DNA of 64,000 nt from an uncultured Planctomycetota bacterium (GCA_963772585.1 CAVYXV010000013.1:62555-126554), one strand, 5' to 3'. Shown: positions 5,278-41,231, numbered from the stretch's first letter. The notes: generated by a model from the letters alone, not told the origin. A program made the numbers and translations.

Positions 5278-5317
5278 AAGGAGTTTCGTTCACAGCCAGG
5301 CTTCGTACGGTACGGGG

Positions 5318-6085: not shown

Positions 6086-6097
6086 CGTTCGGTACGG

Positions 6098-6338: not shown

Positions 6339-6339
6339 A

Positions 6340-8199: not shown

Positions 8200-8265
8200 G
8201 TCTTCTCCGCGCCCGGTTGTACCGGAGATCGCCCCGCACGGGGAAGGGTCGATCGCCGCCGCGGG

Positions 8266-11200
8266 CTACGACCCGGTGCCCTCCCGTCGCCGCCACGCCG
8301 CGAGGACGGCGCGGTGGATCGGGACGTTCTCCACGACCGAGTCGCGGTACGCGGCCGGAACGCGGGCGGCGAGAGCCCTCAGCTCCTGGTGGGCCGCTTC
8401 CAGGTATCCGATGTCGTGGGTCGCGCGCCACGCCTGGAAATCGGCCTCGATCTCGCTGATCGCGGTGACGGGGCCGTCGCGCGCGGCCACGAGCGCGCGG
8501 ATCGTCTCCGGCGTCGCGTGCGAGAGACCCGCCTCCCGGAGCCGGAGGATCCTCGCGGCGGGGTCGTCGGGCTCCGCGAGCGCCAGTGCCTCGTCGAACA
8601 GCGAACGGGCCCCCGCGGTGTCGCCCGCCTCCTCGGCGACCTCGGCCCGCACGGCGAGGGCGGGAGAGAAGAGTCCCAGGCGCCTGGCCTCCGGGTGCTC
8701 CGTCACCTCCTGCGCCAGGTGGTCGGCGCGGTCGAGGTTCCCGCGCACGAGATGGATCTTCGCGAGACGCAGCAGGACGTAGGCGGTGAGCCGCGGATCG
8801 CCGACCTCGAGCGCGATCCGCCGGCAGGCCTCCAACGCGTCCTGCGCGCCGTCCAGGTCGCCGAGCAGGCGGCGGACGTGCCCGAGATTCAGGAGCACGT
8901 TCGCCTCGCCCTGCCGGTTTCCGATCTCGCGCGACATGCCGAGCGCGCGTTCGTACGTCTCGAGCGCCTCCGCGTAGCCTCCCTGCGAGAGCAGCGAACC
9001 GCCGAGGTTCCCCAGCAGCATGGCCTCCTGGTAGCGGTCGCCGATGCTGCGGGCGAGGATGAGCGCCCGCTCGTAGCAGTCCCGCGCGGACAGGTACTCC
9101 CGCCGGTACGTGTGGACGTTGGCGATGTTTCCGAGTGCGGTCACCTCGGAGGCGGGGTCGCCGATCTCGCGGGCGATCTCGCGGTGGCGTCGGTGATTCG
9201 TGAGCGCCTCGTCGAGCCGGCCGCGGGTACGGAGGACGTTTCCGAGACTCCCCAACGCCGCGGCCTCGCCCGCGCGGTCGGCCCCACGGCGGGCCACGGC
9301 GAGCGCCTCCTCGAGGAGGCGCTCGCTCTCGTCGAGGCGTCCCAGGTAGTAGAGCGCGACGCCGAGGTGGAGGGCCGCGGCGCGGAGGGGGGAATCGCCG
9401 CCGGCTTCGCGCGCGAGGGAGAGCGCCTGGCGGAGCGTCTCCTCCGCCCCGGCGTAGTCGGACACCCGGATCCGGAACCAGCCGAGGTCCGTCAGGACCT
9501 CGGCCTGGAGCGACGGGTCGCCCGCCTTCCGGGCCAGGGCGAGCGCCCTTCGGAGCGCCGATTCCTGGGCGGCTCGCCGGCCGAGATGGCCGCAGCCGGC
9601 CGCCTCGCGCAGCAGGAGGCGGGTCCTCCGCTCCCCGCGCACGAGCCCGGGGACGGCGAGCGCCCGCTCGATCCGGTCCACCACCGCCTCGGTCCGGTAG
9701 GAGTAGCCCAGGTGGTCCAGGGCCCGATCGAGGAACGGCAAGGCGTCCTCCGGTCGCGCGCCCCGGAGATGGTGCGTGACCAGGAACACGCAGGTCCTCG
9801 GGTCGACCTCCTCGACGGGCTTCTCCCCCACCCCCTCCCGTTCGGCCAGGGCGGAGGCAAGAGCCGTGTGGTAGGCGACGCGAAGCGCCTGGGGAAGGGC
9901 GTCGTAGAGGACCTCCTGCACCTGGTGGTGGTCGAACCGGAGCAGCCGGCCCGCGCCGCGAACGAGGCCGCTTCGCCGCTCCACCTCCGCCAGCGCCTGG
10001 AGGACCAGGATCGGCTTCGACTCCAGGACGCGGGCGACGAGGTCGGGGTCGAACTCGAAGCCCTGCACCGCGGCGACGTCCAGGATCGCGCGGTCCGGGC
10101 GCTCGAGGTCCCTGGTGCGGGCCTGCACGAGATCGCGCACGGCGGACGGAACCTCGATCTCCCCGATCTCCTGCGTCTCCAGGTACGTCCCGTCGTCGGA
10201 GCGGGAGAGGTACCCCCCCTCCTCGAGGCCGCGGACCATCTCGAAGACGAAGAAGGGGACGCCGTCCGACTTGAAGGCGATCCGACCGCCCAACCGATCC
10301 GCGAGCGTGGCGCTCGCGAAGGCCTCGCGGAGGACCTCGATCACCTCGCGAGGGGACAGGCGGTCCAGGGCGAGGCGGCGGCAGTGCGGTAGCGCCGTGA
10401 GACGCGCGAGCTCGTCGTCGGCACGCCCCGGGCGCGTCGTCACGAGGAGGAGCACGGGCGCGGCGGCGATGGCCCTTGCCAGCGAGACGAAGAGGGCACG
10501 GCTCTCGGGCGGAGCGAAGTGGAGGTCCTCGACCACCCAGAGGACGGGCTTCTCGCGCGCGAGGGCGCGGACCAGTTGCACCATCAGGGTGTGCGGCGCG
10601 TCGCCCTCCAGTCGCCGCGCGCCGGGTGGGAGGTCGCCGTGGCGGACGAGGGCCGCGAAACCGGGGACGAGCTCCGGCATCGCATCGAGATAGGGTCGCA
10701 GCGCCTGGTCGAGCGTCGCGTCCCCGAACCGTTCGACGATCGCGTCGGAGAACGCGCCCAGGCCGGACGTCGGAAGATAGGCGCCGTAGAGGACGTGCGC
10801 ATCGACGTCGCCGACGCGCTCGATCGCCGCATCCACGAAGCGGGTCTTCCCGATGCCCGCCTCGCCCTCGAGCACGACGACGCGGCCATGACCACGCGTC
10901 GCCTCCTTCCACCACCCGGCGAAGGCGGCGAGCTCCGCGTCCCGGCCGCGGACCGCCGTGTCCCGCCGCACGGGAATCTCCGGCCGAACGACCTGGGAGG
11001 CGAGCAGCGCCTTCTCCCGCCCGACCCACCACCGGGAGCGCTCTCCCTCGGCGAGGACCCTCGCCAGCATCGAGGCGGTCGAGAAGCGGTCCTGGGGACG
11101 CTTGGCGAGGAGCGTCGCGATCACCTCGGAGAGGAACACGGACACCGCCGGGCGGCAGTGGTGCACGGGCGACGGCGTCTCCCGGAGATGCGCGTGGATC

Positions 11201-12646: not shown

Positions 12647-12761
12647 ATGGCCGCACTCATCCGGGGCGGTGCGCGACCGGGGCAGGACCTCGCCACCGGG
12701 CGTCGCGCTACCGCCGTGAAGCACGCTCCACGCCTCGCAACCGCGAAGGGACAGCCGCACC

Positions 12762-13940
12762 ATGATGACGCCGCTCCACATGCAGGACCTCGAAGCACTT
12801 CTCGCGCACCGCGAAGGTCCCTGCGTCTCCATCTACATGCCGACGCATCGCACGGGTCACGAGATGCAGCAGGACACGATCCGTCTCAAGAACCTCCTCA
12901 AGGCCTCGGAACGCGAGCTCCAGGGCGTGGCAATTCGGGAGACGTCGGCGCAGGAGATCCTGAAGCCGGCCCGTGACCTGTTGAACGAGGGACCGTTCTG
13001 GGAGAACCTCGGGGACGGGCTCGCCGTGTTCCTCGCACCGGGGTTCTCGCGCATCTACCGCCTTCCCGCGCCCTTCAGCGAGCTCCACGTCGTCGCCGGC
13101 GCATTCCACGTGAAGCGGCTCCTCCCGATCGTGGGCGGCGACGGGCGCTTCTACGTCCTGGCGCTCAGCCAGAACGAAGTGCGCCTGCTACGGGGCACGC
13201 GATTCCACGTGGAGGAACTGGAGCCCGACGGCATGCCCAAGAGCCTGCGGGAAGCGCTCTGGATGGACCACCCCGAGAAGAGCCTCCAGTTCCACACGGG
13301 CTCCTCCGCCGCCACGACGGGCGACGGAGGCTCCCGGCGAGCGGCCGTCTTCCACGGGCAGGGCGGGCCCGCCGCCATCGAGAAGTCGAAGCTGGAGCGG
13401 TACTTCCGCCGCGTCGACGACGGCCTGAGGGAGCACCTGGCCAACGGCAAGGACCCCCTCGTCCTCGCCGGCGTGGATCACTACTTCCCGATCTACCGGG
13501 AGATCAGCAAGGTCCCGACCCTGGAGAAGGAGGGCGTCCCCGGCAACCCGGAGAAACTCAGCATGAGGGAGCTCCACGACCGCGCCTGGGCCATCGTCGA
13601 ACCCCAGTTCCGGAAGGCCGAGACCGACGCGATCGACCGCTACCGGGCGCACGCCGGCCAGGGCAAGACGGCGGCGGGCCTCGAAGCCGTCCTCCCGGCC
13701 GCGCACCATGGTCGGGTGGACACGCTGCTGGTCGCCGCCGGTCGCCAGCAGTGGGGCGCGTGGGTCGCCGGGAGTGGCGCCGACGGGAGCGTCGTCATCC
13801 ACGATCACTACGAGCAGGGCGACCGCGACCTGCTCGACGTCGCGGCGGCCGCCACCTTGAAGTCGGGCGGTCGGGTCTTCCCCCTGGCGGTGGAACGGAT
13901 TCCCGACGGCGCGGATGCGCTGGCCATCCTCCGCTACTGA
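12762..13940 (+). CDS. eRF1/Pelota-like (bacterial aeRF1-type, baeRF family) protein
   Basis: ATG-ATG start with AAGGGA 10 nt upstream. Central segment AVFHGQGGPAAIEKSKLERYFRRV resembles the eRF1 GGQ loop (HGRGGQSALRFARLR). C-terminal GRVDTLLVAAG matches the eRF1/Dom34 domain-3 signature VETLLV. Confidence 0.65.
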   Translation: MMTPLHMQDLEALLAHREGPCVSIYMPTHRTGHEMQQDTIRLKNLLKASERELQGVAIRETSAQEILKPARDLLNEGPFWENLGDGLAVFLAPGFSRIYRLPAPFSELHVVAGAFHVKRLLPIVGGDGRFYVLALSQNEVRLLRGTRFHVEELEPDGMPKSLREALWMDHPEKSLQFHTGSSAATTGDGGSRRAAVFHGQGGPAAIEKSKLERYFRRVDDGLREHLANGKDPLVLAGVDHYFPIYREISKVPTLEKEGVPGNPEKLSMRELHDRAWAIVEPQFRKAETDAIDRYRAHAGQGKTAAGLEAVLPAAHHGRVDTLLVAAGRQQWGAWVAGSGADGSVVIHDHYEQGDRDLLDVAAAATLKSGGRVFPLAVERIPDGADALAILRY

Positions 13941-26882: not shown

Positions 26883-27332
26883 TCAGTCGGGACGGTAGGC
26901 GCCGTAGCGCCGGAGATTCGTGCTCGCCGTGGCGGCCTGGGCGCTGAGCAGGGCGCGCACGCGCCGCGCGAGGGGACGGTTCAGGGCGTCCAGGGTCCGG
27001 GCGACCACCTCGCGCTCCGAAGCGACCAGCTCGTCGAGCAGGGCTTGGGTGTCCGCTTGCGCCGCCGTCTCGAAGGCGCCGAGCCAGGGCTGGTGGAAGG
27101 CGCCGGCCGGGACCCCTTCGGGCTGCGGCAGGCCGCCGAGGCTCTCGATGGCCTCGCTGAGTTGCCGGACGACCGCCCGGCGCTCGCTCTCGGACGCCAG
27201 GAACGCCAGCGACAGACGGCGGTCGTGGGCGCACTCGCGGGCTCGGCCGTACGCCCGCTCACCGGCCTTGGAGAGTTGCAGAAGGTCTTGCAGGACGTCG
27301 AGGGTCTCTTGCGTGGTCAGCCGGGTCATCAT
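26883..27332 (-). CDS. DUF2383 (PA2169-family) four-helix-bundle ferritin-like protein
   Basis: ATG-ATG at 27332/27329 with GGAGG upstream. Conserved LxxLLQLSKDGExxY and RRxxxAxxLxxLG motifs of the TIGR02284 family. Paralogue at 37427-37870. Confidence 0.7.
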   Translation of the reverse strand: MMTRLTTQETLDVLQDLLQLSKAGERAYGRARECAHDRRLSLAFLASESERRAVVRQLSEAIESLGGLPQPEGVPAGAFHQPWLGAFETAAQADTQALLDELVASEREVVARTLDALNRPLARRVRALLSAQAATASTNLRRYGAYRPD

Positions 27333-27446
27333 GGTCGCGGGCGCCTCCGTGAATGCGCCGGCGAGTCGCCGCCGCAAGGGCACGTCGTCCTCTGCATGCT
27401 CGTCCCGCACGACGCACACGCCGTGCCGCCTCGCCCGCATCATCAT

Positions 27447-27480
27447 TCACGAGCGGACGTTGAATCGCGGGGACCTGGCA
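27447..27480 (+). promoter_or_regulatory. copy (a) of a recurrent GG-N10-GC motif (sigma-54 -24/-12-like)
   Basis: cacgagcGGacgttgaatcGCggggacc; shares the ACGAACGGACGTTGMATCGCG core with copies at 29262, 35562 and 52881. Confidence 0.35.
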
Positions 27481-27565
27481 CGCATCTCGCGCCTTGCCTC
27501 GCGGCCCGGTCGGATGCGGCGCCTCCGACAGCCCGGCGCTTCGGACGTCCCACCCCCGGCCGTGA

Positions 27566-28070
27566 CCGTACGACGACGGCGAGTTCCAACGGCCCTTCGA
27601 GGCCCTGGCCGGCGCGGGTCACCCCTGCGCGGTCGTCGGATGCGACGCGGGCGAGCGACATCACCCGCCTTTGCGGAGGCAGCCACGCGACGGTGGAAGT
27701 CGCCGCGTCCCAGGCCCGCGCCACCGACTTCGACGCCCTGGTCGTCCCCGGCGGCCACGGCCCGGACCACCTGCGCCATCGCGACGACGTGGCGCGCTTC
27801 ACGCGGGACTTCTTCACCTCGAGGAAGCTCGTCGCCGCGATCGGTCACGGCGGTCAGGTCCTGATCGACGCCGGCGTCGTCGAGGGTCGCAGGGTGACGT
27901 CGGCGCCCGCGATCCAGCGGGATCTCGAGAACGCCGGGTCGGAGTGGCTCGACGTCGAGGTCGTCGTGGACGGCAACCTGATTACGTCGCGGGGCGCGAC
28001 CGACATCCACAGCTTCATCCGCGTGCGGAAGAAGGAGGTGGGCGCCGATTCGTCGTCGGAGGCGACGTAG
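27566..28070 (+). pseudogene. DJ-1/PfpI family protein, N-terminally truncated and frameshifted near 27655
   Basis: One frame encodes DDGEFQRPFEALAGAGHPCAVVG.DAGE and opens right after a TGA. A second frame continues ITRLCGGSHATVEV...DALVVPGGHGP...AAIGHGGQVL...VVDGNLITSR. No start codon covers the first beta-strand. Confidence 0.5.
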
Positions 28071-28540
28071 CGACGTGCCCGGCGGCCCGCCAGGACGCCG
28101 GTAGCTCGATCGCCCGGGTGCGGACGATCGCCAGCATCAACAGCACGAGGCCGGTCACCATGTCGCTCTGGGCCGGCCCGTCGGCATCGCCGCCCGCCGC
28201 GAGGTAGACGGAGGCAACGAGCCATCCGGCGGCACCGGTGACGAGAACGAGGGGACGGTCGGTTCCGTCCTTCATGCCCGCCGCGCGGCAAACGCCCCTC
28301 CACCCGCCCCGGCTGACGGCCCCGTTCATCGGCAATGGCGGAACGCCCCATCGGAACGACGGACTCCGACCCCTTCGGAGGCGGACGCGCGGGGCGGCGG
28401 CACTCCCGGCGGCGTGCCGGCCCGCATGCCGGGGCGAAGACGCGTACGGGGCGGGCCTCGCTGCCCACCGCTTCGGCCCGTGGGATCGGCACGGCTTCTG
28501 CGTGCCCTGCCAAGCCCCTCGACAAGGAAGGGGACCTCCC

Positions 28541-28828
28541 ATGAGCACCGACACCGACATGCGAGACGTGGAGACACGGCTGGAGAAGATCGGCCTCCAC
28601 CTGCAACAGATGACGCTCGATGCCAAGAAGGCGGGCTTGAAGCTGAAGGAGGAACGAATCGGGCTGCTGTCCGATCTCCAGCGGCGCTACGACGACGCCC
28701 GGCGACGGCTGGACGCCACGAAGACCTCCGCGGCGAACCGGGCCTCGACGGCGGAGCAGGAGTTCCGCAAGGCCTGGGAGGAGTTGAAGCTTCACTACGA
28801 GCGCGTCGCCAGGGGCCCCGCCGACTAG
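28541..28828 (+). CDS. small coiled-coil hypothetical protein (95 aa)
   Basis: ATG with AAGGAAGGGGA upstream. Heptad-like sequence with no known domain. Similar in layout to the proteins at 28886 and 38871. Confidence 0.45.
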   Translation: MSTDTDMRDVETRLEKIGLHLQQMTLDAKKAGLKLKEERIGLLSDLQRRYDDARRRLDATKTSAANRASTAEQEFRKAWEELKLHYERVARGPAD

Positions 28829-28885
28829 CCCACGGGCTGGACGACGGACCCCGAACGACGATCACGAGTCCATGCGGGGTCGATC

Positions 28886-29227
28886 ATGACGGAGGTTCGG
28901 AATAGCGGTACTGGCGATGCGAAGGCGTTCCGCCAGGAGGCCCGCGCGAGGCTGTCGCAAGAAGGCCCCGAGATGATCCGGCTGTTGTCCAAGGCACGGA
29001 GCCACCTCGCCATGCAGAGCCGGGGGCTGAGCGAGCAGATCGAGGCCTTGGTGCATCATCTGTCGTGCGTCCGGACCAAGGTCGATCGCATCCAGGCTGC
29101 GCGGGGTGAGGACCTCGAGGCGCTCGAGAGCGAGCTTGCGGAGGGTTGGACCGCGCTCGAGGGTTGCGCGGCACGCATCCAGGACAAGCTCGAGCGGTCC
29201 GCGCGGACGCACGCCCAGGGCAGGTAG
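28886..29227 (+). CDS. small coiled-coil hypothetical protein (113 aa)
   Basis: Open frame with helical/coiled-coil character. Adjacent to and co-oriented with the 28541 gene. Confidence 0.4.
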   Translation: MTEVRNSGTGDAKAFRQEARARLSQEGPEMIRLLSKARSHLAMQSRGLSEQIEALVHHLSCVRTKVDRIQAARGEDLEALESELAEGWTALEGCAARIQDKLERSARTHAQGR

Positions 29228-29261
29228 CTCGAAGGCGCCTTCCCGTTCGGACGTCCGCGAC

Positions 29262-29310
29262 GGCCACGAACGGACGTCCCGTCGCGCGCTTCGCGGGGAG
29301 TGCAGGCACG
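29262..29310 (+). promoter_or_regulatory. copy (b) of the recurrent GG-N10-GC motif plus an inverted partner, upstream of the sigma-54 activator gene
   Basis: ccacgaacGGacgtcccgtcGCgcgcttcgcggggagtgcaggc, then acggccgttcgtg as the inverted half. Confidence 0.35.
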
Positions 29311-29449
29311 ACGCCAACGGCCGTTCGTGCATAGTGCGGGCTGGATGCGGGATTCCCCCACGCCAACCTCTGGACGGCGGCTTGCGTACGACACCACGGG
29401 GCCACCCGCGCCCGTGCGCGCCGGTGTACTCTCGCGCTCCTGGGATTGG

Positions 29450-30889
<1,440 letters not shown>

Positions 30890-31013
30890 CCAGGCCACCC
30901 GCACGCGTTCGACGCTTGCGCGCGACGACCTCCCGAGCGCGTGCGACCCGGGTGGGATGCGACCGCCCGGTGCCCGCGTCCCACCACGGAGCCCTGCGCG
31001 GCGGGGGACAATG

Positions 31014-31032
31014 GGCCCGCTCATCGCAGTCG
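31014..31032 (+). promoter_or_regulatory. candidate sigma-54 promoter for the EncFtn-encapsulin operon
   Basis: tGGGCCCgctcaTCGCA matches the -24 GG / -12 GC elements with exact 10-nt spacing. The -12 GC lies 31 nt upstream of ATG 31061. A sigma-54 activator gene is immediately upstream. Confidence 0.4.
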
Positions 31033-31060
31033 AGGGAGCGCGTCCCAAGGAGGTCCCGAC

Positions 31061-31447
31061 ATGTCGGAAAGCAGCGGCGGTCTTCACGAGGCGAAGAGCG
31101 ATCTCGGCCCGGAGACCGTGGACCGGCACCGGGCGATCGCGTCCCTGATGGAAGAACTCCAGGCGATCGACTGGTACGAGCAACGCGTCCAGGCGACGCA
31201 GGACGAAACGCTCGGCGCGATCCTCGCGCACAACCGGGACGAGGAGAAGGAGCACGCCGCCATGCTGCTGGAGTGGCTTCGGCGCCATGATCCCGCCCTG
31301 GACGGCGAGTTGAGGACCTACCTCTTCCGCGACGGAGACATCACGACCTTGGAAGGGGCGGGAGCCGAGGGGGCCGACGACACGGGCAGTACGCCGCCCC
31401 GAACGACCCCGGACGGTTCGCTGGGCATCGGGGACATGGGAGGATGA
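31061..31447 (+). CDS. encapsulated ferritin-like cargo protein (EncFtn) with a C-terminal encapsulin targeting peptide
   Basis: AAGGAGG RBS. EncFtn ferroxidase motif (IDWYEQRV...ILAHNRDEEKEHAAMLLEWLRR). C-terminal ...DGSLGIGDMGG resembles the SLGIGxL cargo-loading peptide. Confidence 0.85.
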   Translation: MSESSGGLHEAKSDLGPETVDRHRAIASLMEELQAIDWYEQRVQATQDETLGAILAHNRDEEKEHAAMLLEWLRRHDPALDGELRTYLFRDGDITTLEGAGAEGADDTGSTPPRTTPDGSLGIGDMGG

Positions 31448-31463
31448 GAAGGAACCGGATGCA

Positions 31464-31590
31464 GTGTTTCGGCCGGCTGCGGAGCCACGACGCGCCTTGC
31501 CCCTTCGACGGGCTCACGGCGGCTGCGCCGCTCGCGGCTCCTCGCGAGGCCTCGGACCCTCGCCCCATTCCCTCAGACCCTCCGAGAGGA
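31464..31590. repeat. third member of the 165-bp repeat family, between encFtn and the encapsulin shell gene
   Basis: Shares ttcggccggctgcgg.(g/a)ccacga at its 5' end and cctcgg.ccctcg.ccc.tt.c.tca...ccctc.gagag.a at its 3' end with the tandem units at 12312-12646. Its 3' end supplies the shell-gene RBS (gagagga). Confidence 0.6.
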
Positions 31591-31597
31591 GACGACG

Positions 31598-32404
31598 ATG
31601 TTGTTCCTGCGGCGTGAACAGGCCCCGGTCTCGGAGGCCGCGTGGGCCCGGATCGACGCGGAGGCGAGACGCACGTTGCGCCTCCGCATGGGCGCTCGCA
31701 AGTTCTTCGACGTCCTCGGTCCGAAGGGGTGGGCCGACGCGTGCGTGAATCTCGGACGCAAGGCCGAGACCACGGGATTCGACCCCGGCGTGGACGCCGC
31801 AACGCGGCTCGTCCAGCCGCTGCTGGAGCTCCGTGTCCCGTTCACGCTGTCGCGCGCGGACCTGGATGACGTGGACCGGGGTTGCCCGAACCCCGATCTC
31901 GATCCCGTGATCGACGCGGCGAAGAGCCTCGCTCGCGCCGAAGGCCGGGTGCTCTTCCACGGCCACGCGGACTCGGGCGTGGTCGGCATGGCGGACGGCG
32001 GCACGCACGATCCGCTGCCGCTCCCCGAAGATCCGGAAGGCATTCCGGGCGCGGCGGCCGCCGCGGTCAACCTGCTCCGGGACGAGGGCATCGAAGGGCC
32101 CTACGGCATCGCGCTCGGGTCCCGGCCCTACACCGGCCTCGTGCAGGCGCCCGCCTCCGGCGGCTATCCCGCTCTCGATCGGCTTCGCAACGTCCTCAGC
32201 GGCCCGGTCGTCTGGGCGCCGTCGCTCGAGGGCGCGGTGGTGCTGAGCATGCGCGGCGGCGACTTCGAGTTGCACGTCGGCCAGGACGCCTCGATCGGCT
32301 TCCACTCGCACACGCCGGAAGACGTCCACTTCTTCCTGGTGGAGACCTTCACGATGCTGAATCTCACGCCCGAAGCGGCGATCGGCCTCCAGTACGGAGG
32401 ATAG
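31598..32404 (+). CDS. family-1 encapsulin nanocompartment shell protein (linocin M18 / CFP29 type)
   Basis: MLFLRREQAPVSEAAW...GRKFFDV, ELRVPFTL, RGCPNPDL, DEGIEGPYGIALG, GGDFELHVGQDASIGF, VHFFLVETFT. These are collinear with the T. maritima and M. xanthus encapsulin sequences. Confidence 0.9.
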   Translation: MLFLRREQAPVSEAAWARIDAEARRTLRLRMGARKFFDVLGPKGWADACVNLGRKAETTGFDPGVDAATRLVQPLLELRVPFTLSRADLDDVDRGCPNPDLDPVIDAAKSLARAEGRVLFHGHADSGVVGMADGGTHDPLPLPEDPEGIPGAAAAAVNLLRDEGIEGPYGIALGSRPYTGLVQAPASGGYPALDRLRNVLSGPVVWAPSLEGAVVLSMRGGDFELHVGQDASIGFHSHTPEDVHFFLVETFTMLNLTPEAAIGLQYGG

Positions 32405-32478
32405 ATGGCGGGGGACGTCGGAGCGTGTCTCGCCGGCGGGCGACCGAACCCCGTCGCCTGCCCGACAACGCCCGTCCG

Positions 32479-32904
32479 TCAGCTCCTCGGGGGCGCCGCG
32501 CTGATCTTCCCGAGTGCGGATCGGGAGGCGTGGTCCTCGGCGAGATCGCCCAGGGAGATGACGCCGACGGGTTTCCCGCCGTCGTCCGCCACGGGCAGGC
32601 GCCGCACCGCCTTCTCCTTCATGAGCTCGATCGCTCGATCCGGCGCGTCCGACATCGACAGGGTGACGAGGTCCCCGCCGCACGCGTTCTCGCACGTCGT
32701 CTTCCCGGGGTCCTTGCCCTCGGCGAGCACGCGCACGACGATGTCCCGGTCGGTCAGGATCCCCGTGAGCTTCCCCTTCGTGTCGGTCAGAAGCGCGTTG
32801 CCGACGTTGGAGTGTCGCATCCGTTGCGCGGCATCCAGGACGGAGGTCGTGAACTCCAGCGTCACCAGGTCCTTGCTCATCAACTCCGCGAGTGACGTCG
32901 TCAT
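32479..32904 (-). CDS. CBS-pair domain protein
   Basis: ATG at 32904 with AAGGAG 8 nt upstream. Two CBS motifs (VGNALLTD.KGKLTGILTDRDIV and RRLPVADDGGKPVGVISLGDL). Confidence 0.8.
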   Translation of the reverse strand: MTTSLAELMSKDLVTLEFTTSVLDAAQRMRHSNVGNALLTDTKGKLTGILTDRDIVVRVLAEGKDPGKTTCENACGGDLVTLSMSDAPDRAIELMKEKAVRRLPVADDGGKPVGVISLGDLAEDHASRSALGKISAAPPRS

Positions 32905-33011
32905 GGTCCTGGCTCCTTCTCGTGGCAGGCTCGCGGCCTCCCCGCGTTTCGGGGAGCGCCGAGGCCGTGGGCACCGCACGCTCCGTGCCGCCGTCGTCCT
33001 TCGTCGGGGCG

Positions 33012-33418
33012 CTACGCGCGGACGTGCGCGTAGAACTCCCGAACCCGCCGATCCATCGCCGCATCGACCGGCTCCTCCGCGTCGTACGCGGCACGCTCCC
33101 GGACCTTGCGACCTGGTACGGCCCTCGCGAGAACGCCCTCGGGCCCGTGGATCCCGGTCAGCACGGTCGGAGGCAGGAGGGCGCTTCGACCGGAGTGCCA
33201 GGGGCCGGTCCCCACCACCACGAAGGAGAGTTCCCGGGTCTCCGCGTCGAGGCGGAAGCCGCGCACATGTCCGATGGCCGGCTCGCCCACGGGACGACGC
33301 CGTAGCCGTGCACCTCGCGGCTGGCGCGGAGGTGGCGCTCGTCGCCGTCCCTCGCGGCGAAGCGGAAACCGTCAAGGCTCTCGATGCTGTGCAACCTCTC
33401 CTGCTCCGTCGGCACCAT
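33012..33418 (-). CDS. PRC-barrel domain protein; apparent frameshift between 33290 and 33160
   Basis: ATG 33418 lies 33 nt after the upstream gene stop and opens LDGFRFAARDGDERHL. A second frame continues VRGFRLDAETRELSFVVVGTGPW...LLPP, a PRC-barrel signature. Either one frameshifted gene or a 92-aa GTG-initiated gene (33290-33012). Confidence 0.4.
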
Positions 33419-33451
33419 CGTTGCGTTCCACGGAAGGGGACAGGGGTGCCG

Positions 33452-33739
33452 TCAGTCCCGGCTCCCGTGGCTTTCGAGCTGGTCGATGTCGCGCCGGAGA
33501 TGCTCGAGCCTCTCTACGATCTCGGGCCTCTGCGACTTCATGTGATCGGGCCCGAGTTGTGACCGTTTCACGAGATCCAGGATCTCCGCGTGCCGATCGC
33601 GAAGGCTCGCCCGCTGTTTCGTGAAGAGAGGGCTGGGGCCTTTGCCGGGCATCGGAACGCGAGGCGCGAGCACGTCGATCCGCTCTCCGTAGTCGTCCAT
33701 GGTGGACTTCCACTCGTCGAACGGGGGAGGCTGTGTCAT
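33452..33739 (-). CDS. small hypothetical protein (95 aa), first gene of a three-gene minus-strand operon
   Basis: ATG at 33739 with GGGAGGAG RBS. Hydrophilic. No known domain. Confidence 0.45.
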   Translation of the reverse strand: MTQPPPFDEWKSTMDDYGERIDVLAPRVPMPGKGPSPLFTKQRASLRDRHAEILDLVKRSQLGPDHMKSQRPEIVERLEHLRRDIDQLESHGSRD

Positions 33740-33895
33740 GGGGATCTCCTCCCGAATTCCGAACGCGGATGCCCTCTGGCACTCGATGACGGACCCGTGT
33801 CCGGCGAAGAACACGCGGCAAGCGCTGTGCCGGGGGAACGCGGCGCGTTTCGTTCCGCGCATGCGGCGGCCGCGGGGCCGGTGGCGGGCTGCCCG

Positions 33896-34813
33896 CTACG
33901 CCGTCGCCTTCTCGCCCAGGCGGACGAGCGCGCGCTGCCGGCCCTCGTCGAGCCGCCGGGCCCTCCGCGCGATGTCCGCCCACGGGTCGTCGCGGGCTCC
34001 GAGGCGCCGGAGGATGTTCTCCAGGCGCCACCGTCTCGCGTCGAGGTCCGGATCGTCGAGCTCGTCCCACTCCAGCGGGGTGGCCACCGGTGCCCCTTCA
34101 CGCGCCCTCACGGCGTACGGAGCGACCGCCGTCTGGCCGCGGGCGTTCCGCATCACGTCGAGATACACGCGGTCGCCTCGCTTCGTCTTCCGCACCTCCA
34201 GCGTCAGCGCTCGGGGCTGACGCCGTACGAGAACCTCCGCGGCCCCGCGTGCGAACGCACGGACTTCATCGAAGGTCCTTTCTGGCCGGATGGGGACCAC
34301 GACGTGCAGCCCCCGAGAACCCGTCGTCTGGACGAAAGGAACGAGATCGATCTCCCGCATGAGCTCCCCCAGTCGTCGGGCCGCCTCGCGAATCCTCCCG
34401 AAGGGAGCGCCCGCGGGGGGATCCACATCGAAGACGATCCGGTCGGGGTGGTCGAGGTCCGGCTCCCTGCTCAGCCAGACGTGCAGCGTGATGCACGCCT
34501 GATCGACCAGGAAGGCGAGGCTGGAGCGGCTCTGTGCCGTCAGCTGTCGCTGGTGGCCCTCGGCGGTCCGCACCGTCGTGCGGTGGACCCAGTCGGGCGT
34601 CCTGGCGGGCACGCGCTTCTGGTAGAAGCCCTCGCCCTCGATGCCGTCGGGGTATCGCTGGAGCGTGAGCGGCCGGCCCCGGAGGTGGCGCAGCATGGTC
34701 TCGCCGACCCCCACGTAGTAATCCAGGAGATCCCGCTTCGTCACGCCGCAATCCGGGAACAGGACCTTGTCGGGATGGGACAGTTCGACGCGCCCGAACC
34801 CATGGGCCATCAT
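33896..34813 (-). CDS. stand-alone LigD polymerase/primase domain (NHEJ PolDom)
   Basis: ATG-ATG with AAGGAGG RBS. HPDKVLFPD.GVTKRDLLDYY, GRPLTLQRYPDGI, FYQKRVP, and SRGLHVVVPI motifs of the LigD polymerase domain. Confidence 0.85.
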   Translation of the reverse strand: MMAHGFGRVELSHPDKVLFPDCGVTKRDLLDYYVGVGETMLRHLRGRPLTLQRYPDGIEGEGFYQKRVPARTPDWVHRTTVRTAEGHQRQLTAQSRSSLAFLVDQACITLHVWLSREPDLDHPDRIVFDVDPPAGAPFGRIREAARRLGELMREIDLVPFVQTTGSRGLHVVVPIRPERTFDEVRAFARGAAEVLVRRQPRALTLEVRKTKRGDRVYLDVMRNARGQTAVAPYAVRAREGAPVATPLEWDELDDPDLDARRWRLENILRRLGARDDPWADIARRARRLDEGRQRALVRLGEKATA

Positions 34814-34896
34814 TGAAGGTCCTCCTTGGCGCGTCCCCCCGCCCGGTCCCTCGCTTGCGGGCCGTGCCGCGCCCCGGAGCGCGGTCGGAGCGGACC

Positions 34897-35514
34897 ATGA
34901 GCACACGGAAGGAACCGCTGGAAACGTACGCGAGCCGGCGCTCGTTCGGCAAGACGCCCGAGCCGGATGTCGCCGACGACAGCCCGGTTCGCTGGCGAAA
35001 GGCCGACAATCCCATCTTCGTGATCCAGAAGCACGCCGCCAGCCGTCTGCACTACGACTTCCGTCTCGAAGTGGACGGGGTGTTGAAGTCCTGGGCCGTG
35101 CCCAAGGGTCCTTCCACGGATCCCCGGGAGAAACGCCTTGCGGTGGAGACGGAGGACCACCCCCTCGCGTACGCCGACTTCGAAGGGGTGATCCCCGAAG
35201 GCGAGTACGGGGCGGGGCGCGTGATCGTCTGGGACGCGGGGCCGTACCGCGTCCTGCCGGGCGAGGACGGCGAGGCACCGGACGCGGGCGAGGCGCTGCG
35301 GAAGGGGTACCTCGACGTCTGGCTCGAGGGTCGCAAGGTCCGCGGCGGATACGCCTTGATCCACGCGAAGGTCGGAGGGAAGCACGAGAACTGGCTCCTG
35401 GTCAAGCACGACGACGACGCGGCGGACGCGCGAAGGAAGCCCACGAGCACGCAACCCGAGAGCGTCGTGTCCGGGCGGACGATCGAGGAGATCGGTGACG
35501 ACGAGGACCCCTGA
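34897..35514 (+). CDS. stand-alone LigD 3'-phosphoesterase domain
   Basis: FVIQKHAASRLHYDFRLE.DGVLKSWAVPKGPS, TEDHPL.YADFEG.IPEGEYGAG; divergent from the polymerase-domain gene. Confidence 0.85.
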   Translation: MSTRKEPLETYASRRSFGKTPEPDVADDSPVRWRKADNPIFVIQKHAASRLHYDFRLEVDGVLKSWAVPKGPSTDPREKRLAVETEDHPLAYADFEGVIPEGEYGAGRVIVWDAGPYRVLPGEDGEAPDAGEALRKGYLDVWLEGRKVRGGYALIHAKVGGKHENWLLVKHDDDAADARRKPTSTQPESVVSGRTIEEIGDDEDP

Positions 35515-35561
35515 CGGGGCCCGTCGCCACACTCCCAATGCTGCGGGCTAGTTGGCACTAC

Positions 35562-35605
35562 CCACGAACTGGCGTTGAATCGCGCGCTTCGCGGGGAATG
35601 CAGGC
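35562..35605 (+). promoter_or_regulatory. copy (c) of the recurrent motif: CCACGAACTGGCGTTGAATCGCGCGCTTCGCGGGGAATGCAGGC
   Basis: Lies between the LigD phosphoesterase stop and the BON gene stop. TGGCGT-N5-ATCGC resembles sigma-54 -24/-12 with a 9-nt spacer. Its 3' half is near-identical to the copy at 29281. Confidence 0.35.
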
Positions 35606-37242
35606 TAGTCACCGAGCCCGGCCTCTGCGTCCGTAGAGGAAGGGGTCCCTTCCTCGTCCTTCGGCAGCGGCGGCAGCTTCGGAGGATTCACGTCCAGGTC
35701 GTCCACGACCCATCCGGCTCCCGCTTCGTACGCATTCATGATCGCGGCGTGCTTCTCGCTCCAGCTGTCCACCTCGCCCGAGAGACGCACCACGCCGTTC
35801 TCGACCGCGACGTCCACGTCCATCAGGTCCACGAACGGGCTCCACCAGATCTCCTGTTCCACGCGGCTCTTCAGCTTCCGGTCGCTGATCGGCACGCTGT
35901 AAGACGACGGCTGATACCACCTGACGTTCGCCCACGCGAGATCGTCCACGTACGGTCCGTAGACCAGCGGCGTGTAGTGATCGCGGACGTCGAGGGCGTT
36001 GTCCACGTCTTGGACCCCGCGAGCCCTGGAAACCAGGTCCTCGGCCCGCATCTTCTCCCAATAGGTGTTGACGGTCCCGTCCAGGCGAATCTTCCCGTCG
36101 TCAGCCGTGATCTCGATGTCGTGGGAGTCCACGATGGGATCTCGTACCACGTTTCCGAGAGCGCGCATCTCGAGCTCGTCGTCGGCGACGTGCGGGGGAC
36201 GCACCTTCACGCGATTCCACACCCCGAGAACCCCGGTCACGTTCCGGGCGTCGGCGCCTGCGCAGCGCCGCGCCTTCAGATTGTCCACCGTACCTCGGAG
36301 GGTCACGAAACCGTCCTGCAACGTCGGCTCGATGTCGAACGAATGGACCCGCGGATCGACGGAGAGCGCATCGATGACCGCCGCCTTCACGTCCTCAACG
36401 GCACGCCGGGCCGGTCTTCCTCTCACGTCGGGGCCTTCGGTCCAGTCGCGGACGGAGACGCCGCTCACGTCCACGCTCTTCACCCCCATGACGTAGGCAT
36501 CACCCTCGGCTCTGTCCTTCTCCGCAGCGCTACGGACCACGCCGACGAGGCGCACGCCACCGTCTTCCACATCGACCTGGAGCAGACGGTCATCGACACG
36601 AACGTCCCAATCCAGGGAACGGGCGATCTCGCTTTGGATCTCGCCGTCCGAGCGAGGTGTCATGAGATTCACGGACATCGCGTCCTCGACGTCCAGCACG
36701 CCGTCTACGCTCTTCGCGACCTTCCGTGCGAGCTGGTCCTCGCGCCAGGAGTCCACCGCGCCGTGCAGGGTGACGACCCCGCCCCCGACGTTCACCTTCA
36801 ACTCGTAGGCGTCCGTTGCAGGATCCGCGTGGAGGGCCTCCTGGACGTCCTTCTTGACGATGGCGTCGGATCGCACGGAATCCGGATCGATCTTCAGGCG
36901 ATTCACCACGCCTCGCACGCCACGCATGGCCTTGGCGATGCGGACGGCCCGCTCTTTCTCCAGGAGGCTGTCCACCTCCCCCTCGAGGGTGACGATGCCC
37001 CCGACGACGCGGACGTCCACGTCGTCGAGCGTGACGACGGGATCGTGGGCGATCTGGTCCTCGACGGCGATCAGCACGCTCGGGTCGTCGAGCGAGGGCG
37101 TATTCGGCTCGTCGGCGAAGGCAGGGCCGGACCGGACGACGACGACGGCCGCGGCGAGAACGGCAAGGACCCCGACGAAGGCCGGTCCCCCCATGACGCG
37201 AAGACGTCGCGTCGACGCGTGGATGCGGTTGTCGTATCTCAT
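35605..37242 (-). CDS. secreted protein with about six BON (OsmY-like) domains
   Basis: Signal peptide. Repeated ~70-aa units with the BON signature (V.V.GG.VTL.G.V.S...R..A....GV..V.N.L.V). Confidence 0.85.
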   Translation of the reverse strand: MRYDNRIHASTRRLRVMGGPAFVGVLAVLAAAVVVVRSGPAFADEPNTPSLDDPSVLIAVEDQIAHDPVVTLDDVDVRVVGGIVTLEGEVDSLLEKERAVRIAKAMRGVRGVVNRLKIDPDSVRSDAIVKKDVQEALHADPATDAYELKVNVGGGVVTLHGAVDSWREDQLARKVAKSVDGVLDVEDAMSVNLMTPRSDGEIQSEIARSLDWDVRVDDRLLQVDVEDGGVRLVGVVRSAAEKDRAEGDAYVMGVKSVDVSGVSVRDWTEGPDVRGRPARRAVEDVKAAVIDALSVDPRVHSFDIEPTLQDGFVTLRGTVDNLKARRCAGADARNVTGVLGVWNRVKVRPPHVADDELEMRALGNVVRDPIVDSHDIEITADDGKIRLDGTVNTYWEKMRAEDLVSRARGVQDVDNALDVRDHYTPLVYGPYVDDLAWANVRWYQPSSYSVPISDRKLKSRVEQEIWWSPFVDLMDVDVAVENGVVRLSGEVDSWSEKHAAIMNAYEAGAGWVVDDLDVNPPKLPPLPKDEEGTPSSTDAEAGLGD

Positions 37243-37426
37243 CGGTCGTACTCCTCTCTGACGCTGCCCGCGTCACGACACGCAGGGGGCGCAACCCGCA
37301 TGCCGCCGTCTCCGGGCAGGGGGGCGTGTCCCGGGAAGGGTGAATCGGAGGGAGAGCCACCAGGGGTTTCGGAACCCCCGGCACGGACCGCAAGACGACG
37401 GGGGGAGGGCCTGGACCCTCCGACGT

Positions 37427-37870
37427 TCAGGCGCGGTGCGCCGTGAGCCCCTCGAATCGGCGCAGATTCGCCTTTGCTCCGGCCGCCTGGCTCGTGACGA
37501 GGCCGCGAATGTCGTCGCCGAGAGGCGCCGCCATGGCCTCGTCGTAGTGCTTCACCGCGGCACGTTCTGCACGGACGATCTCCTCGAGCAGCGTCTTGTC
37601 GGCGCTCCCGGAGAGCGTGCTGCGTGCCTCCAGCCACGTCCTGCCAAAGGCCCCCGGCACCGTCCCTCGCTCCGCCGGTCTCCCGCCCAGCTCCTCGATC
37701 TTGTCCACGAGTTGTTGCGCCGCGATCGCGCACGACTCGAGACTCGTCTCGAACGCCGCCTTCAGCGTCTCGTCGTCGGTGATCTCCTTGGCCCGCCCGA
37801 AGGTCTCTTCGCCGTCCTTCGAAACGTGGAGCAGATCGCCCAGGAGACTGATGGTCGCCGCCTCGTCCAT
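37427..37870 (-). CDS. DUF2383 (PA2169-family) four-helix-bundle protein, second paralogue
   Basis: LLGDLLHVSKDGEETFGRA, RAERAAVKHYDEA; same family as 26883-27332. Confidence 0.7.
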   Translation of the reverse strand: MDEAATISLLGDLLHVSKDGEETFGRAKEITDDETLKAAFETSLESCAIAAQQLVDKIEELGGRPAERGTVPGAFGRTWLEARSTLSGSADKTLLEEIVRAERAAVKHYDEAMAAPLGDDIRGLVTSQAAGAKANLRRFEGLTAHRA

Positions 37871-38214
37871 GGTCTTGTCATCTCCGGATGGGTTTCATTC
37901 GGGGATCGAGGCCTGTCGTCATGCCTATCTTCGATCCTGCTTGCCCTCCGGCAAATCACGGACCGGGCGTCGATCCGCCCGCCTACCCCGGACCGCGGCG
38001 CCGGGGAGGTCGTCAGGCCCCGGTCCGGGCGCACTCCGGGAGGGCGCTTCGAGCCGGCAGGTTCGCGCTTCGCTCCCCGCGATTCTCGCCCTTTGCCGGC
38101 CGACGGCGACTCTCACCGGCACTGCCCGCCCCTTCTTCGACCGCGACGCGGACCCTCTGGTGATCGCACTCCAGGCCGATCCAGGAGCCGCGGAAACGGA
38201 TCCGGAAGTCCAGC

Positions 38215-38780
38215 CGACGGATCGCGACGGGGAGCCTCGGATTCAGCCGGAGGGTGCCGTCCGGGATCTCGAGCCCCGTGAGACCGCGCTGGACCCGGTC
38301 GACCGTGCTTTCCATCGCTCCCACGTGGATGCCCTCGGGGGATGGGAGGGACTGATCGCCAAGAACGCCGCCTCTCCCTACGTCGGAGGGCGATCGCCCC
38401 ACGGGCTCGAGTTCAAGTGCCACGGCGAACAGGAGTTCGTCGTCGCCGGCTTCACCGACCCCGAGGCCGACGAGGACTGGATCGGCGCCCTGGTTCTGGG
38501 GATCTACGAGAAGGGCGATCTCGTCCACGCCGGCCGGGTCGGTACGGGCTTCGACGACGACGAGCGAGGGGACCTTCGACGGCGTCTGGCGCGCTCGGAG
38601 CGCAGGTCCCCACCGTTCCCGGCGGAGGTGCCCCACCCGTCCGAGGTGCCCTGGACGACGCCCAGGATGGTCGTGCAGGTCGCCTTCACGGGGTGGACGA
38701 GGAAGGGGCGGCTTCGTCACCCCCGCTACCTGGGAATCCGACACGACAAGGACCCGACCGCGGTCCACCGGGAGGGCTGA
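38215..38780 (+). pseudogene. remnant of an ATP-dependent DNA ligase (LigD ligase domain, C-terminal motifs IV-VI and OB fold only)
   Basis: EGLIAKNAASPYVGGRS..W.K.K, EFVVAGF, and RHPRYLGIRHDKDP motifs. There is no motif I (KxDGxR) in any frame, and only ~345 nt of space before the upstream gene. Confidence 0.5.
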
Positions 38781-38870
38781 CCGTCCCCCCCGCCCGCCGC
38801 TTCGCCCATGGCGCTGCGGCACGAGATATGCTTGAGAGGGCATGGCCACCGGGCCGACTTCGGAGCCCCC

Positions 38871-39164
38871 ATGACGAGACGAACGGCCTTCGACGATCTG
38901 GAAGCGAACATCGCGACGCTCCGGGCGGACCTCGATCGACTCCGTACGGACTTCACGGACCTCCACTGGGAGAAACACCCCACGGAGAAGACCCTCCTCG
39001 AAGAGGCGGAACAGAGCTACAGCAAGACCCTCGCCAACCTGGAGCGGGTCCGGCTCCAGGCCCTGGCGGACTCGGACGAGTTGCCGGAGGATCTGCGGGC
39101 GAGCTGGCACGAGCTCCGACACGCCTTCCAGCGCCTCGTGGAGCACCGCTCCCGCGCCACCTGA
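38871..39164 (+). CDS. small coiled-coil hypothetical protein (97 aa)
   Basis: ATG with GGAG upstream. Helical heptads (LEANIATLRADLDRLRTDF...). Layout resembles the 28541 and 28886 proteins. Confidence 0.45.
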   Translation: MTRRTAFDDLEANIATLRADLDRLRTDFTDLHWEKHPTEKTLLEEAEQSYSKTLANLERVRLQALADSDELPEDLRASWHELRHAFQRLVEHRSRAT

Positions 39165-39256
39165 TCCGCGCACGCGCGACGTCCTCGATTGGCATGCGGG
39201 ATGCGACTTCCCGGTCGGACCGGTCGCAGGAGTGCGACCGCTCCGGGAGATCGATC

Positions 39257-39754
39257 GTGCACCGACACGTGCTGCTTCCCGTGGACGGTTCCGAAGGGAC
39301 CCGACTCGCCGTTGCCGAGGTCTGCAACTGGGGGGAGTCGATGCGACCCGATCGGCTCACGCTCCTCCAGGTGCTCGGGCCCTATCCGCCCGCCCTGCTC
39401 GAGAGCGGCGGATCGAGCGACCCCGAAGAAGAACGCAGGCAGCACGATCGGCTCGCTCAGGAGCGGCGCCGGTGGGATCGTGAGGCCGAAGAAAGGGCCA
39501 GGCCGGTCGTGGAGGCCGCCCTCCAGGGGCTCCACGCCGCAGGCTACGGAAAGGACGTGGAGGTCGTGCACACCACGCTCATCCCCGAAGACGACGTGGC
39601 GCGCAGGGTGATCGAGGTGGCGCGGGACCACCATTGCGATCGCATCGTCGTCGGCCGCTCGCCCGGCGACGACGAAGGCCGACTCGACGCCTCGGTCGTG
39701 GACAAGCTCGAAGACCTTGCCAGCGGCGACGTGGACACCCTCGTCGTCGGCTGA
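39257..39754 (+). CDS. universal stress protein (UspA family)
   Basis: GTG at 39257 with GGGAGA 7 nt upstream. HVLLPVDGSEG...RIVVGRSPG...VLVV-type Usp motifs. Confidence 0.75.
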   Translation: MHRHVLLPVDGSEGTRLAVAEVCNWGESMRPDRLTLLQVLGPYPPALLESGGSSDPEEERRQHDRLAQERRRWDREAEERARPVVEAALQGLHAAGYGKDVEVVHTTLIPEDDVARRVIEVARDHHCDRIVVGRSPGDDEGRLDASVVDKLEDLASGDVDTLVVG

Positions 39755-39842
39755 CCCGCCGTCCGCCCGACCCCACGTCGGGATTCGGCCCCCGCCGCGG
39801 TTTCCCGTTGGAATTCCTGCGCGAAACGAGAAGAATCCCGCC

Positions 39843-41231
39843 ATGCGCCCCTTTGCATGCGTATCCAGTGGGCTCTCGATCCTCCTGTTCGCGGCTCTGC
39901 TCCCCTTCGTCACGGACGCCCGGGCGGAAGATCCGGACACGGCCGCTCCGCCTCTCGATTTCCGAGAGATCATCCACCAGGCGAAGAGCCGCGTCTTTCC
40001 CGCCGTCCTCTTCGTCCGGTGCATCAGCGAGTCGCACGAGGGGGGGAAGCGGGAGACGCAGCAGGTGTCCGGAAGCGGCGTCCTGATCACCGCCGACGGG
40101 GAGTTCCTCACCAACTGGCACGTCGTGGAGAAGGCCGTGGAGGTCCGATGCCTGCTGCTCGACGGGCGGGCGTTTCCGGCGAAGGTGCTGGGTACGGACA
40201 AGTCGACGGATCTGGCCCTCTGCCGTCTCGAGGGCGGAGAGGACACAGGGCCCTTCCCCTGCGCGAGTCTCGGCGACTCGGACGCGCTGACCGAGGGCGA
40301 CTTCGTGATGGCGATGGGAGCACCCTGGGGCCTCAGCCGATCGGTATCCCTCGGCATCGTCGCGTGCACGCGACGCTACCTTCCCGGCAACAGCGAGTAC
40401 AGCCTCTGGATCCAGACGGACGCATCCATCAGTCCCGGCAACTCGGGCGGCCCCCTCGTGAACACCGACGGCGCGGTCATCGGTCTCAACACGCGCGGGG
40501 TCCGCAGCGGCGGCGACATGGGCTTCGCCGTGCCCTCCGCGACGATCCGCCTCGTCCTCGACCACCTCCGCAAGGACGATCGGGTCCCGTGGAGCTGGAG
40601 CGGCCTGCTCCTGCAACCGCTGCGGGACTTCGACAAGGACATGGTCTACGAAGGCGATCACGGCGTGATCGTCACCGGGACGGAACCGGAGAGTCCCGCC
40701 CGGCGGGCCGGCATCAAGGCCCGGGATCGTCTCCTCGCGGTGAACGGCCGACCGCTGGACGCCCGGGTGACGGAAGACCTTCCTGCCCTCCGTCGGCTGC
40801 TCGCTCTGCTCCCCGGCGGAGAGCCCGCCCGCTTCGAGGTGCAGAGGGATGGCCAGACGATCGAGGTGGAGTTCGCGCCGCGCGCGAAAGGCAGTGTCGA
40901 AGGCGAGGAGCTGGACCTCCCGCGCTGGGACTTCTCCGTGAAGGAGATCAACCAGTTCGACAATCCAGAGTTGTTCTTCTACCGAAAGAAGGGCGTATTC
41001 GTCCAGGGGATCCGTCAACCCGGCAACGCGGCGGATGCCGGGTTGCGGCGGGGCGACATCATCGTGAGGGTCGGGTCGGACGACGTCGAGACCCTCGATC
41101 GGCTGAAGGCCGTCCACGAGGCCGCCGTGGCCGACGTGGGGCGCCATCCGAAGATCGTCCTGACCGTCCTTCGCCAGGGCCTCATGCGGCAGATCGTTCT
41201 CGACTTCGCACGGGATTACGAACGGAAGTAG
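39843..41231 (+). CDS. HtrA/DegP/DegQ-family periplasmic serine protease with two PDZ domains
   Basis: Signal peptide. Catalytic triad context (TNWHVV, D..LCRL, GNSGGPLVN). Two PDZ segments. Confidence 0.85.
   Translation: MRPFACVSSGLSILLFAALLPFVTDARAEDPDTAAPPLDFREIIHQAKSRVFPAVLFVRCISESHEGGKRETQQVSGSGVLITADGEFLTNWHVVEKAVEVRCLLLDGRAFPAKVLGTDKSTDLALCRLEGGEDTGPFPCASLGDSDALTEGDFVMAMGAPWGLSRSVSLGIVACTRRYLPGNSEYSLWIQTDASISPGNSGGPLVNTDGAVIGLNTRGVRSGGDMGFAVPSATIRLVLDHLRKDDRVPWSWSGLLLQPLRDFDKDMVYEGDHGVIVTGTEPESPARRAGIKARDRLLAVNGRPLDARVTEDLPALRRLLALLPGGEPARFEVQRDGQTIEVEFAPRAKGSVEGEELDLPRWDFSVKEINQFDNPELFFYRKKGVFVQGIRQPGNAADAGLRRGDIIVRVGSDDVETLDRLKAVHEAAVADVGRHPKIVLTVLRQGLMRQIVLDFARDYERK

Follow-up and report, generated by a model that had tools for sequence, protein, structure and literature searches.

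The 64-kb stretch of DNA analysed here (hereafter the window; G+C content 70.8%) carries between 28541 and 32404 a run of genes, all on one strand, in which the gene of a sigma-54 enhancer-binding protein stands upstream of, and co-directional with, encFtn and the encapsulin gene. The features of this locus are:

28487-28502, + strand: sigma-54-type site CGGCACGGCTTCTGCG, 9.0 bits, 38 nt before the ATG at 28541, heading the small-gene/activator operon
28541-29227, + strand: two small coiled-coil-like genes of 95 aa and 113 aa (ORFs with no Pfam family)
29450-30889, + strand: sigma-54 enhancer-binding protein, 479 aa (Sigma54_activat PF00158, E 4e-70; AAA_lid_14 PF25601; HTH_8 PF02954)
30900-30989, + strand: two GC-rich inverted repeats/hairpins, with arms 30900-11/30934-45 and 30951-61/30975-85
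31013-31028, + strand: candidate sigma-54 (-24/-12) promoter GGGCCCGCTCATCGCA, from reading of the sequence and from consensus and matrix scoring
31039, + strand: predicted transcription start, 12 nt after the C of the -12 GC by standard sigma-54 geometry
31048-31054, + strand: strong ribosome-binding site AAGGAGG, 6 nt 5' of the ATG
31061-31447, + strand: encFtn, encapsulin-associated ferritin-like cargo, 128 aa (PF22277, E 2e-38; TIGR04535, 135.9 bits with a cut-off of 125)
31598-32404, + strand: family 1 encapsulin shell gene, 268 aa (PF04454, E 1e-76; NF041155, 265.5 bits with a cut-off of 100)

The activator combines a degenerate receiver-like N-terminus with an AAA+ domain containing GAFTGA and a C-terminal Fis-type HTH, its translation showing both 'GHEKGAFTGA' and the Walker A stretch 'GETGVGKE'. 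Similarity of its N-terminus (29450-29850) to receiver domains is sub-threshold (PF00072, E 0.068); inspection by eye shows the phosphorylation-site Asp, but S-E at the acidic pair and no clear conserved Lys, and control of the protein may not be via phosphorylation. It reaches the cut-off of none of the NCBIfam equivalogs, and its gene is the single one for an enhancer-binding protein in the window. The EncFtn protein ends in GSLGIGDMGG, a targeting peptide as read from the translation, and such a cargo beside a gene for an HK97-fold shell is the arrangement that identifies an EncFtn/family 1 encapsulin operon. The two genes are separated by 150 nt (31448-31597), the gap being of 10 nt in one related locus (L171) and the genes overlapping in two others (L004 and L173); the structure of the 150-nt gap is not unusual (z +0.67) and it has no Rfam match.

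The region following the activator stop codon folds with -56.5 kcal/mol (z -2.46) into two mutually dissimilar hairpins, of which no further copies were found in the window and which have no counterpart in L171 and L173, where the spacer is 89-90 nt long. They are possibly a terminator, an insulator or protein-binding sites.

A candidate sigma-54 promoter upstream of encFtn

A first, sequence-only reading of this DNA had placed a sigma-54 promoter at 31014-31032 and credited it with 11 of 13 consensus positions. The coordinates were wrong and the match overstated: the motif, GGGCCCgctcaTCGCA, spans 31013-31028 and agrees with the consensus TGGCAC-N5-TTGCA at 8 of the 11 specified positions, the mismatches at -26 (G), -22 (C) and -14 (C) occurring all three together. 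The exact spacing that had been claimed did stand, GG (31014-15; -25/-24) and GC (31026-27; -13/-12) being separated by the canonical 10-nt gap. The domain and cut-off scores likewise bore out the calls of a sigma-54 activator, EncFtn and a family 1 encapsulin, and the geometry described was found to hold, since the site is intergenic and on the coding strand, begins 123 nt past the activator stop codon (30887-89) and has its 3' end 32 nt from the encFtn ATG (31061), within a stop-to-ATG spacer of 171 nt and with a predicted +1 near 31039.

The GG-N10-GC pattern occurs 1601 times in the window, where shuffles lead to expect 1613 +/- 40, that is, at chance frequency, and 76 window sites reach at least 8 of 11 consensus positions, 40 of them with both GG and GC. 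With a generic sigma-54 weight matrix, an approximate one modelled on a published compilation and yielding rough scores, the candidate reaches 5.75 bits; 79 window positions are equal or better, and 0.05-0.08 such sites are expected by chance in the encFtn spacer. A lineage matrix made from 14 strong local sites gives it 0.7 bits, which is background (1044 sites, with 1038 under a Markov null). This matrix is overfitted (n=14) and penalises every deviation, and its score is treated here as a warning and not as a verdict; it is not decisive because another locus (L174) uses GGCCCG and the window site at 27476 uses TCGC. Without comparison the candidate does not go beyond chance and is no more than suggestive; in 70% GC DNA a GG-N10-GC match means little unless comparison backs it.

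A scan of 30500-31700 revealed neither a sigma-70-like promoter nor an intrinsic terminator with a T-tract, and an Rfam scan of 30700-31700 returned zero family matches. A reading of GACAATG...CATCGCA as a Fur box was dropped by eye, the spacing being wrong.

Neighbouring sites and tolerated deviations

At least nine stronger, correctly oriented intergenic sigma-54-type sites lie within 12 kb; the stronger sites of this lineage stand 27-47 nt before their genes. Besides that at 28487, the nine are:

27428, - strand: before a DUF2383 gene
27476, + strand: TGGCACGCATCTCGCG, before a DJ-1/PfpI gene
32990, - strand: before a CBS gene
33832, - strand: before a 95-aa gene
37305, - strand: before the gene of a six-BON-domain protein
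37965, - strand: before a second DUF2383 gene
38817, + strand: before a 97-aa gene
39190, + strand: upstream of an HtrA-type protease gene

Locally the sites follow a consensus of approximately CGGCA(C/T)G-N4-NTGCG. No rpoN was found among the annotated ORFs of the window; the activator, which is intact, and these strong sites together imply a functioning sigma-54 system.

The sites belong to a stress-type gene island (26883-41231), most genes of which are preceded by sigma-54-like sites stronger than that of encFtn. The island contains two DUF2383 ferritin-like genes and genes for DJ-1/PfpI, CBS, six-BON-domain and small coiled-coil proteins, as well as LigD primase-polymerase and phosphoesterase genes and the HtrA-type protease. 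Elsewhere in the window there are an intergenic 35-nt tandem repeat in 2.9 copies with 94% matches (6098-6199), related copies of which lie inverted about 100 nt downstream (6274-6338), and a 249-nt tandem repeat of 3.5 copies and 97% identity (59750-60622) within a 928-codon ORF (57905-60691), where a module of 83 residues has been duplicated recently. At 12720-13937 a gene of the baeRF family (bacterial archaeo-eukaryotic release-factor-like) adjoins one for a ZnuA-type metal-binding protein.

Two of the three deviations of the candidate recur at other sites. The conserved operon promoter of L174 (CGGCCCGGGGCTTGCG) has GGCCCG for its -24 element where other loci have GGCAC/TG, so this variant would work at -24 in this group; the window site at 27476, perfect in all else, has TCGC at -12. 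No site in the compared set combines the two changes. The Salmonella sites bound by sigma-54 holoenzyme in ChIP-chip experiments include TGGCCCATTGAATGCATC and TGGAACGCTTTTCGCATT, TGGCCC...TGCA and ...TCGCA thus both occurring among them (PMC3844500). These share C at -22 or the TCGCA -12 element with the window's site, but neither of the two combines both deviations and both keep T at -26; many of the Salmonella bound sites are intragenic and of unknown function (PMC3844500).

Conservation in related loci

Contig look-ups by exact protein retrieved two metagenomic relatives (n=2), L171 and L173, with the gene order of the window, namely activator, EncFtn and encapsulin. L171 comprises the last 56 residues of an orthologous activator (47/56 identical to the window's), an 89-nt spacer, EncFtn and an encapsulin 64% identical to that of the window, followed by a homologue of the window's 95-aa gene (33452-33739); in L173 the activator is complete (67% identical), and EncFtn, with GTG 3030 as its start codon, follows after 90 nt of spacer. 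EncFtn identity among the three loci is 65-67%, and third-codon identity at conserved residues is as low as 53-62%, so that divergence at neutral sites is heavy.

The spacers of L171 and L173 have one 23-nt block in common, CGGCCCGC(C/G)GATTGCT, which can be written as ACCG(g/a)TCGGCCCGC(c/g)GATTGCTG and is identical in the two loci at 21/23 positions. Its score of 17 compares with 7.7 +/- 1.3 under the null and was reached in 0/500 shuffles. The block contains the -24/-12 elements of both loci (CGGCCCGCCGATTGCT in L171 and CGGCCCGCGGATTGCT in L173) as a properly spaced CGGCCCG-N4-TTGCT, scoring 8.2 and 7.9 bits where about 0.01 such sites are expected per spacer. No other conserved block that might be an alternative promoter was found in these two spacers, the remainder of which is unalignable.

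The L171/L173 site lies 41-42 nt 5' of the start codon, and the window's site is 10 nt nearer to the start. Pairwise comparison of the window spacer with that of L171 or L173 gave no significant block. Against the 17-mer consensus of the block, the window's site matches at 12/16 positions, a level equalled at 11 of 127,968 window positions and expected by chance 0.013 times in the encFtn spacer, in which it is the best match by three positions. We take the window's site to be the corresponding element in a degenerate form and the weakest of the three copies. Conservation of the -24/-12 element in relatives, which the sequence-only reading had named as a check on its promoter, was accordingly found within the window's clade. 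Of the proposed sigma-54 promoter for the operon, what gains support from L171 and L173 is the element itself; the strength ascribed to its match in the window does not stand.

The activator family and its own operon

Activator homologues 54-73% identical to that of the window are followed by varied genes, which encode RtcB-RtcA (L008), an ACT-domain protein (ACT_8; L009), a SEC-C protein (L010) or small unknown proteins (the P0122 contig and L174). What the family conserves lies upstream, in the form of a small-gene operon headed by a sigma-54 promoter of its own: the arrangement of small genes and activator is kept in L008, L009, L010, L173 and L174, all of which have a site at the position matching 28487. 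The operon consists of a sigma-54 promoter, 1-3 small coiled-coil genes (95, 45-57 and 109-114 aa) and the activator, at the following positions:

Window, 28487-30889: conserved activator operon
L008, 4046-6434: conserved activator operon
L009, 4587-6539: conserved activator operon
L010, 4002-6263: conserved activator operon
L173, 973-2939: conserved activator operon
L174, 3559-5428: conserved activator operon

This layout suggests autoregulation, and the small coiled-coil proteins may be partners of the activator or anti-activators. The activators are related in a star-like manner (63-73% identity; 85% between L008 and L010, 54-58% for L174), the two EncFtn-linked ones being just marginally closer to each other than to the rest. 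In L010 the gene seems frameshifted near its 3' end (6230-6385), the called protein having 420 aa and the HTH lying in another frame.

In L009 a good site, CGGAACGTCGATTGCG, occurs between the activator and the downstream gene, 36 nt before its ATG. No properly spaced site was found in the corresponding spacers of L008, L010 and L174, that of L174 holding a wrongly spaced TGGCCC-N7-TTGC, and these three refute as a rule the idea that the activator always drives its downstream neighbour. The L008 region 5001-8822 carries an activator homologue 73% identical to the window's followed by the RNA repair genes rtcB-rtcA; the 140-nt spacer before these has no properly spaced -24/-12 site of at least 6 bits. 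In E. coli rtcB-rtcA are under the control of the sigma-54 activator RtcR.

A search for an enhancer motif common to these loci found none. TCGGAA/TTCCGA shows no overall enrichment (27 occurrences with about 18 expected) and is not apparent ahead of encFtn; palindromes of this type were seen 5' of the promoter that heads the activator operon in the window, L008, L010 and L173. In several loci TCGGA/TCCGA-type palindromes are seen 70-170 nt upstream of the operon promoter.

Survey of EncFtn and encapsulin loci

The wider survey covered 80 encapsulin loci from species-representative genomes and 80 EncFtn loci from metagenomes, the closest of which show 55% (encapsulin) and 64% (EncFtn) identity. 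A sigma-54 activator lies within 4 kb in 2 of the 160 loci and upstream in none (0/160); judged from these gene orders, the activator-EncFtn linkage is clade-specific. The nearest homologues of the encapsulin with usable context (L004-L006, 56% identical) show a TPR gene on the upstream side, with no site. Over 157 loci, the p-values of the best upstream matrix scores were distributed near-uniformly; sigma-54 control is therefore not general among EncFtn operons. A search with the EncFtn protein cannot single out the clade, all matches being 60-67% identical and spread across phyla.

At the upper end of the distribution, upstream sites of at least 14 bits were observed three times with 0.21 expected. 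In a Competibacteraceae locus (L062), TGGTACATTTATTGCT lies at 3530-3545, 80 nt before EncFtn, and a convergent receiver-AAA+-HTH activator gene (4883-6241) follows just after the shell gene. The mutually related L142 (40-55) and L151 (3823-3838) have a common TGGCACCAA(TT/AC)CTGCA upstream of EncFtn. Near-canonical sigma-54 sites, here too in other, unrelated lineages, are also present upstream of EncFtn in L150 (3865-3880) and L169 (3939-3954), the latter, CGGCCCTCACCTTGCA, again with GGCCC.

Discussion

On balance, and with moderate confidence, we regard 31013-31028 as a genuine, sub-consensus sigma-54-dependent promoter of the encFtn-encapsulin operon. The promoter is probably real because two distant relatives keep a better copy in the same place, beside the same activator gene. 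Sigma-54 binding, the start site, the neighbour as cognate activator, the place where that activator binds and its signal are what we infer from this arrangement. Sigma-54 promoters have very low basal activity and fire solely through an activator. In the mechanism that we propose, sigma-54 RNA polymerase would bind the GG at 31014-15 and the GC at 31026-27 in a closed complex unable to start alone. A hexamer of the enhancer-binding ATPase, most likely the product of 29450-30889, would then touch sigma-54 via the GAFTGA loop and open the DNA with ATP, so that transcription starting near 31039 would yield a 22-nt leader with AAGGAGG, followed by EncFtn and then the shell protein. Production of the cage would in this way be off by default and switched on when a signal activates the ATPase.

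The alternative that survives best, unlikely in our judgement and yet deserving serious weight, is that the candidate is a chance match or a decayed remnant, and that the operon is transcribed by read-through from 28487 or from an unrecognised promoter that another sigma factor uses. A chance or decayed site would account for the background score under the lineage matrix, the 79 equal or better generic sites and the three simultaneous deviations, but not readily for the 12/16 match to the relatives' block, of which so few are expected in this spacer. Transcripts from the activator operon could in principle reach encFtn, as the genes from 28541 to 32404 share a strand and no T-tract terminator separates the activator gene from encFtn; the two strong hairpins after the activator stop codon are nonetheless expected to impede read-through and may shield encFtn from it, making an internal promoter necessary. 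As for another sigma factor, no sigma-70-like promoter turned up in the scanned region, and the relatives' spacers have no other conserved block in which such a promoter might be sought.

Even if the sigma-54 promoter is real, the neighbouring gene need not encode its activator: it might serve its own operon (28487) while another enhancer-binding protein serves encFtn. We hold this to be improbable. It would fit the finding that the family's conserved partner is the upstream small-gene operon with a sigma-54 promoter, the downstream neighbours being variable, and that no shared enhancer motif was found. However, all three loci with the encFtn promoter have this activator immediately upstream, it is the sole such gene in the 64-kb window, and L009 too has a site between the activator and the downstream gene. 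Slightly less probable still is a reading in which a dimeric DNA-binding regulator has its operator in the conserved block, which would then be no sigma-54 site, as an imperfect 14-bp palindrome present in all three loci (ATGGGCCCGCTCAT at 31011-31024 in the window, GTCGGCCCGCCGAT in L171, ATCGGCCCGCGGAT in L173) with a symmetric change of the third half-site base (G/C in the window, C/G in the relatives) might suggest, since such a palindrome (5/6 arm match) is frequent in 70% GC DNA (an estimated 1% or so of positions), the symmetric change counts as a single event, conservation runs past the palindrome into T(T/C)GC(T/A)G, the -12 element, and the block fits an external, pre-specified consensus with the correct spacing.

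Returning to the sigma-54 promoter, it is possible, and we put it forward tentatively, that the locus exemplifies a modular cassette in which a first sigma-54 promoter, one or more small coiled-coil genes and the gene of a degenerate-receiver activator are followed by another sigma-54 promoter and an exchangeable stress 'payload', which in the window's clade would be EncFtn-encapsulin. Only when the activator fires would the compartment be made, as one member of a local sigma-54 stress/dormancy island, and sigma-54 would have been recruited independently to EncFtn operons in other phyla (L062, L142/L151). The literature found does not say how cells time the building of iron-storing encapsulin compartments. 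If the promoter is what we propose, the compartment would be a tightly gated stress response and not a housekeeping iron store, and the locus would name a specific regulator and offer, for engineered expression of encapsulins, a promoter-activator pair that is both compact and tight.

Comparison with known systems

Classical sigma-54 promoters such as glnAp2 and nifH (TGGCAC-N5-TTGCA/T) have GG and GC doublets one helical turn apart, as does the site described here, which resembles them also in its position just upstream of the start and in its expected dependence on an AAA+ GAFTGA activator. It differs in having G at -26, C at -22 and C at -14, the relatives' CGGCCCG-N4-TTGCT being closer to the classical form, and in its target, a nanocompartment operon instead of nitrogen, flagellar or envelope-stress genes. 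The flagellar sigma-54 promoters of Caulobacter crescentus, which have the form TGGCCC-N5-TTGC, are activated by FlbD. A literature check for Caulobacter TGGCCC promoters found nothing; these promoters, which likewise belong to a high-GC organism, have a -24 element of the GGCCC form as the present one does, but regulon and activator differ, and we regard the likeness as a lead and not as a test.

Activator genes located beside a sigma-54 target operon are known from E. coli in rtcR-rtcBA, pspF-pspABCDE and norR-norVW. The window repeats this plan, with the gene of an enhancer-binding protein directly beside an operon with a -24/-12 site. In contrast to these systems, the activator here is co-directional, upstream and part of its own sigma-54 operon with two coiled-coil genes, and its N-terminus is a degenerate receiver in place of a CARF, PspA-binding or NO-sensing domain.

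EncFtn-family 1 encapsulin operons occur in Rhodospirillum rubrum and Haliangium ochraceum, and Myxococcus xanthus EncA forms an iron compartment (see PMC7762939). The window has in common with these a two-gene cargo-shell unit and a C-terminal targeting peptide on the cargo. Its cargo and shell genes are 150 nt apart, whereas they abut in known EncFtn operons. No link of encapsulins to sigma-54, RpoN or an enhancer-binding protein was found in the literature. A sigma-54 promoter beside its putative activator would be an arrangement of a known kind, in which the encapsulin target is new.
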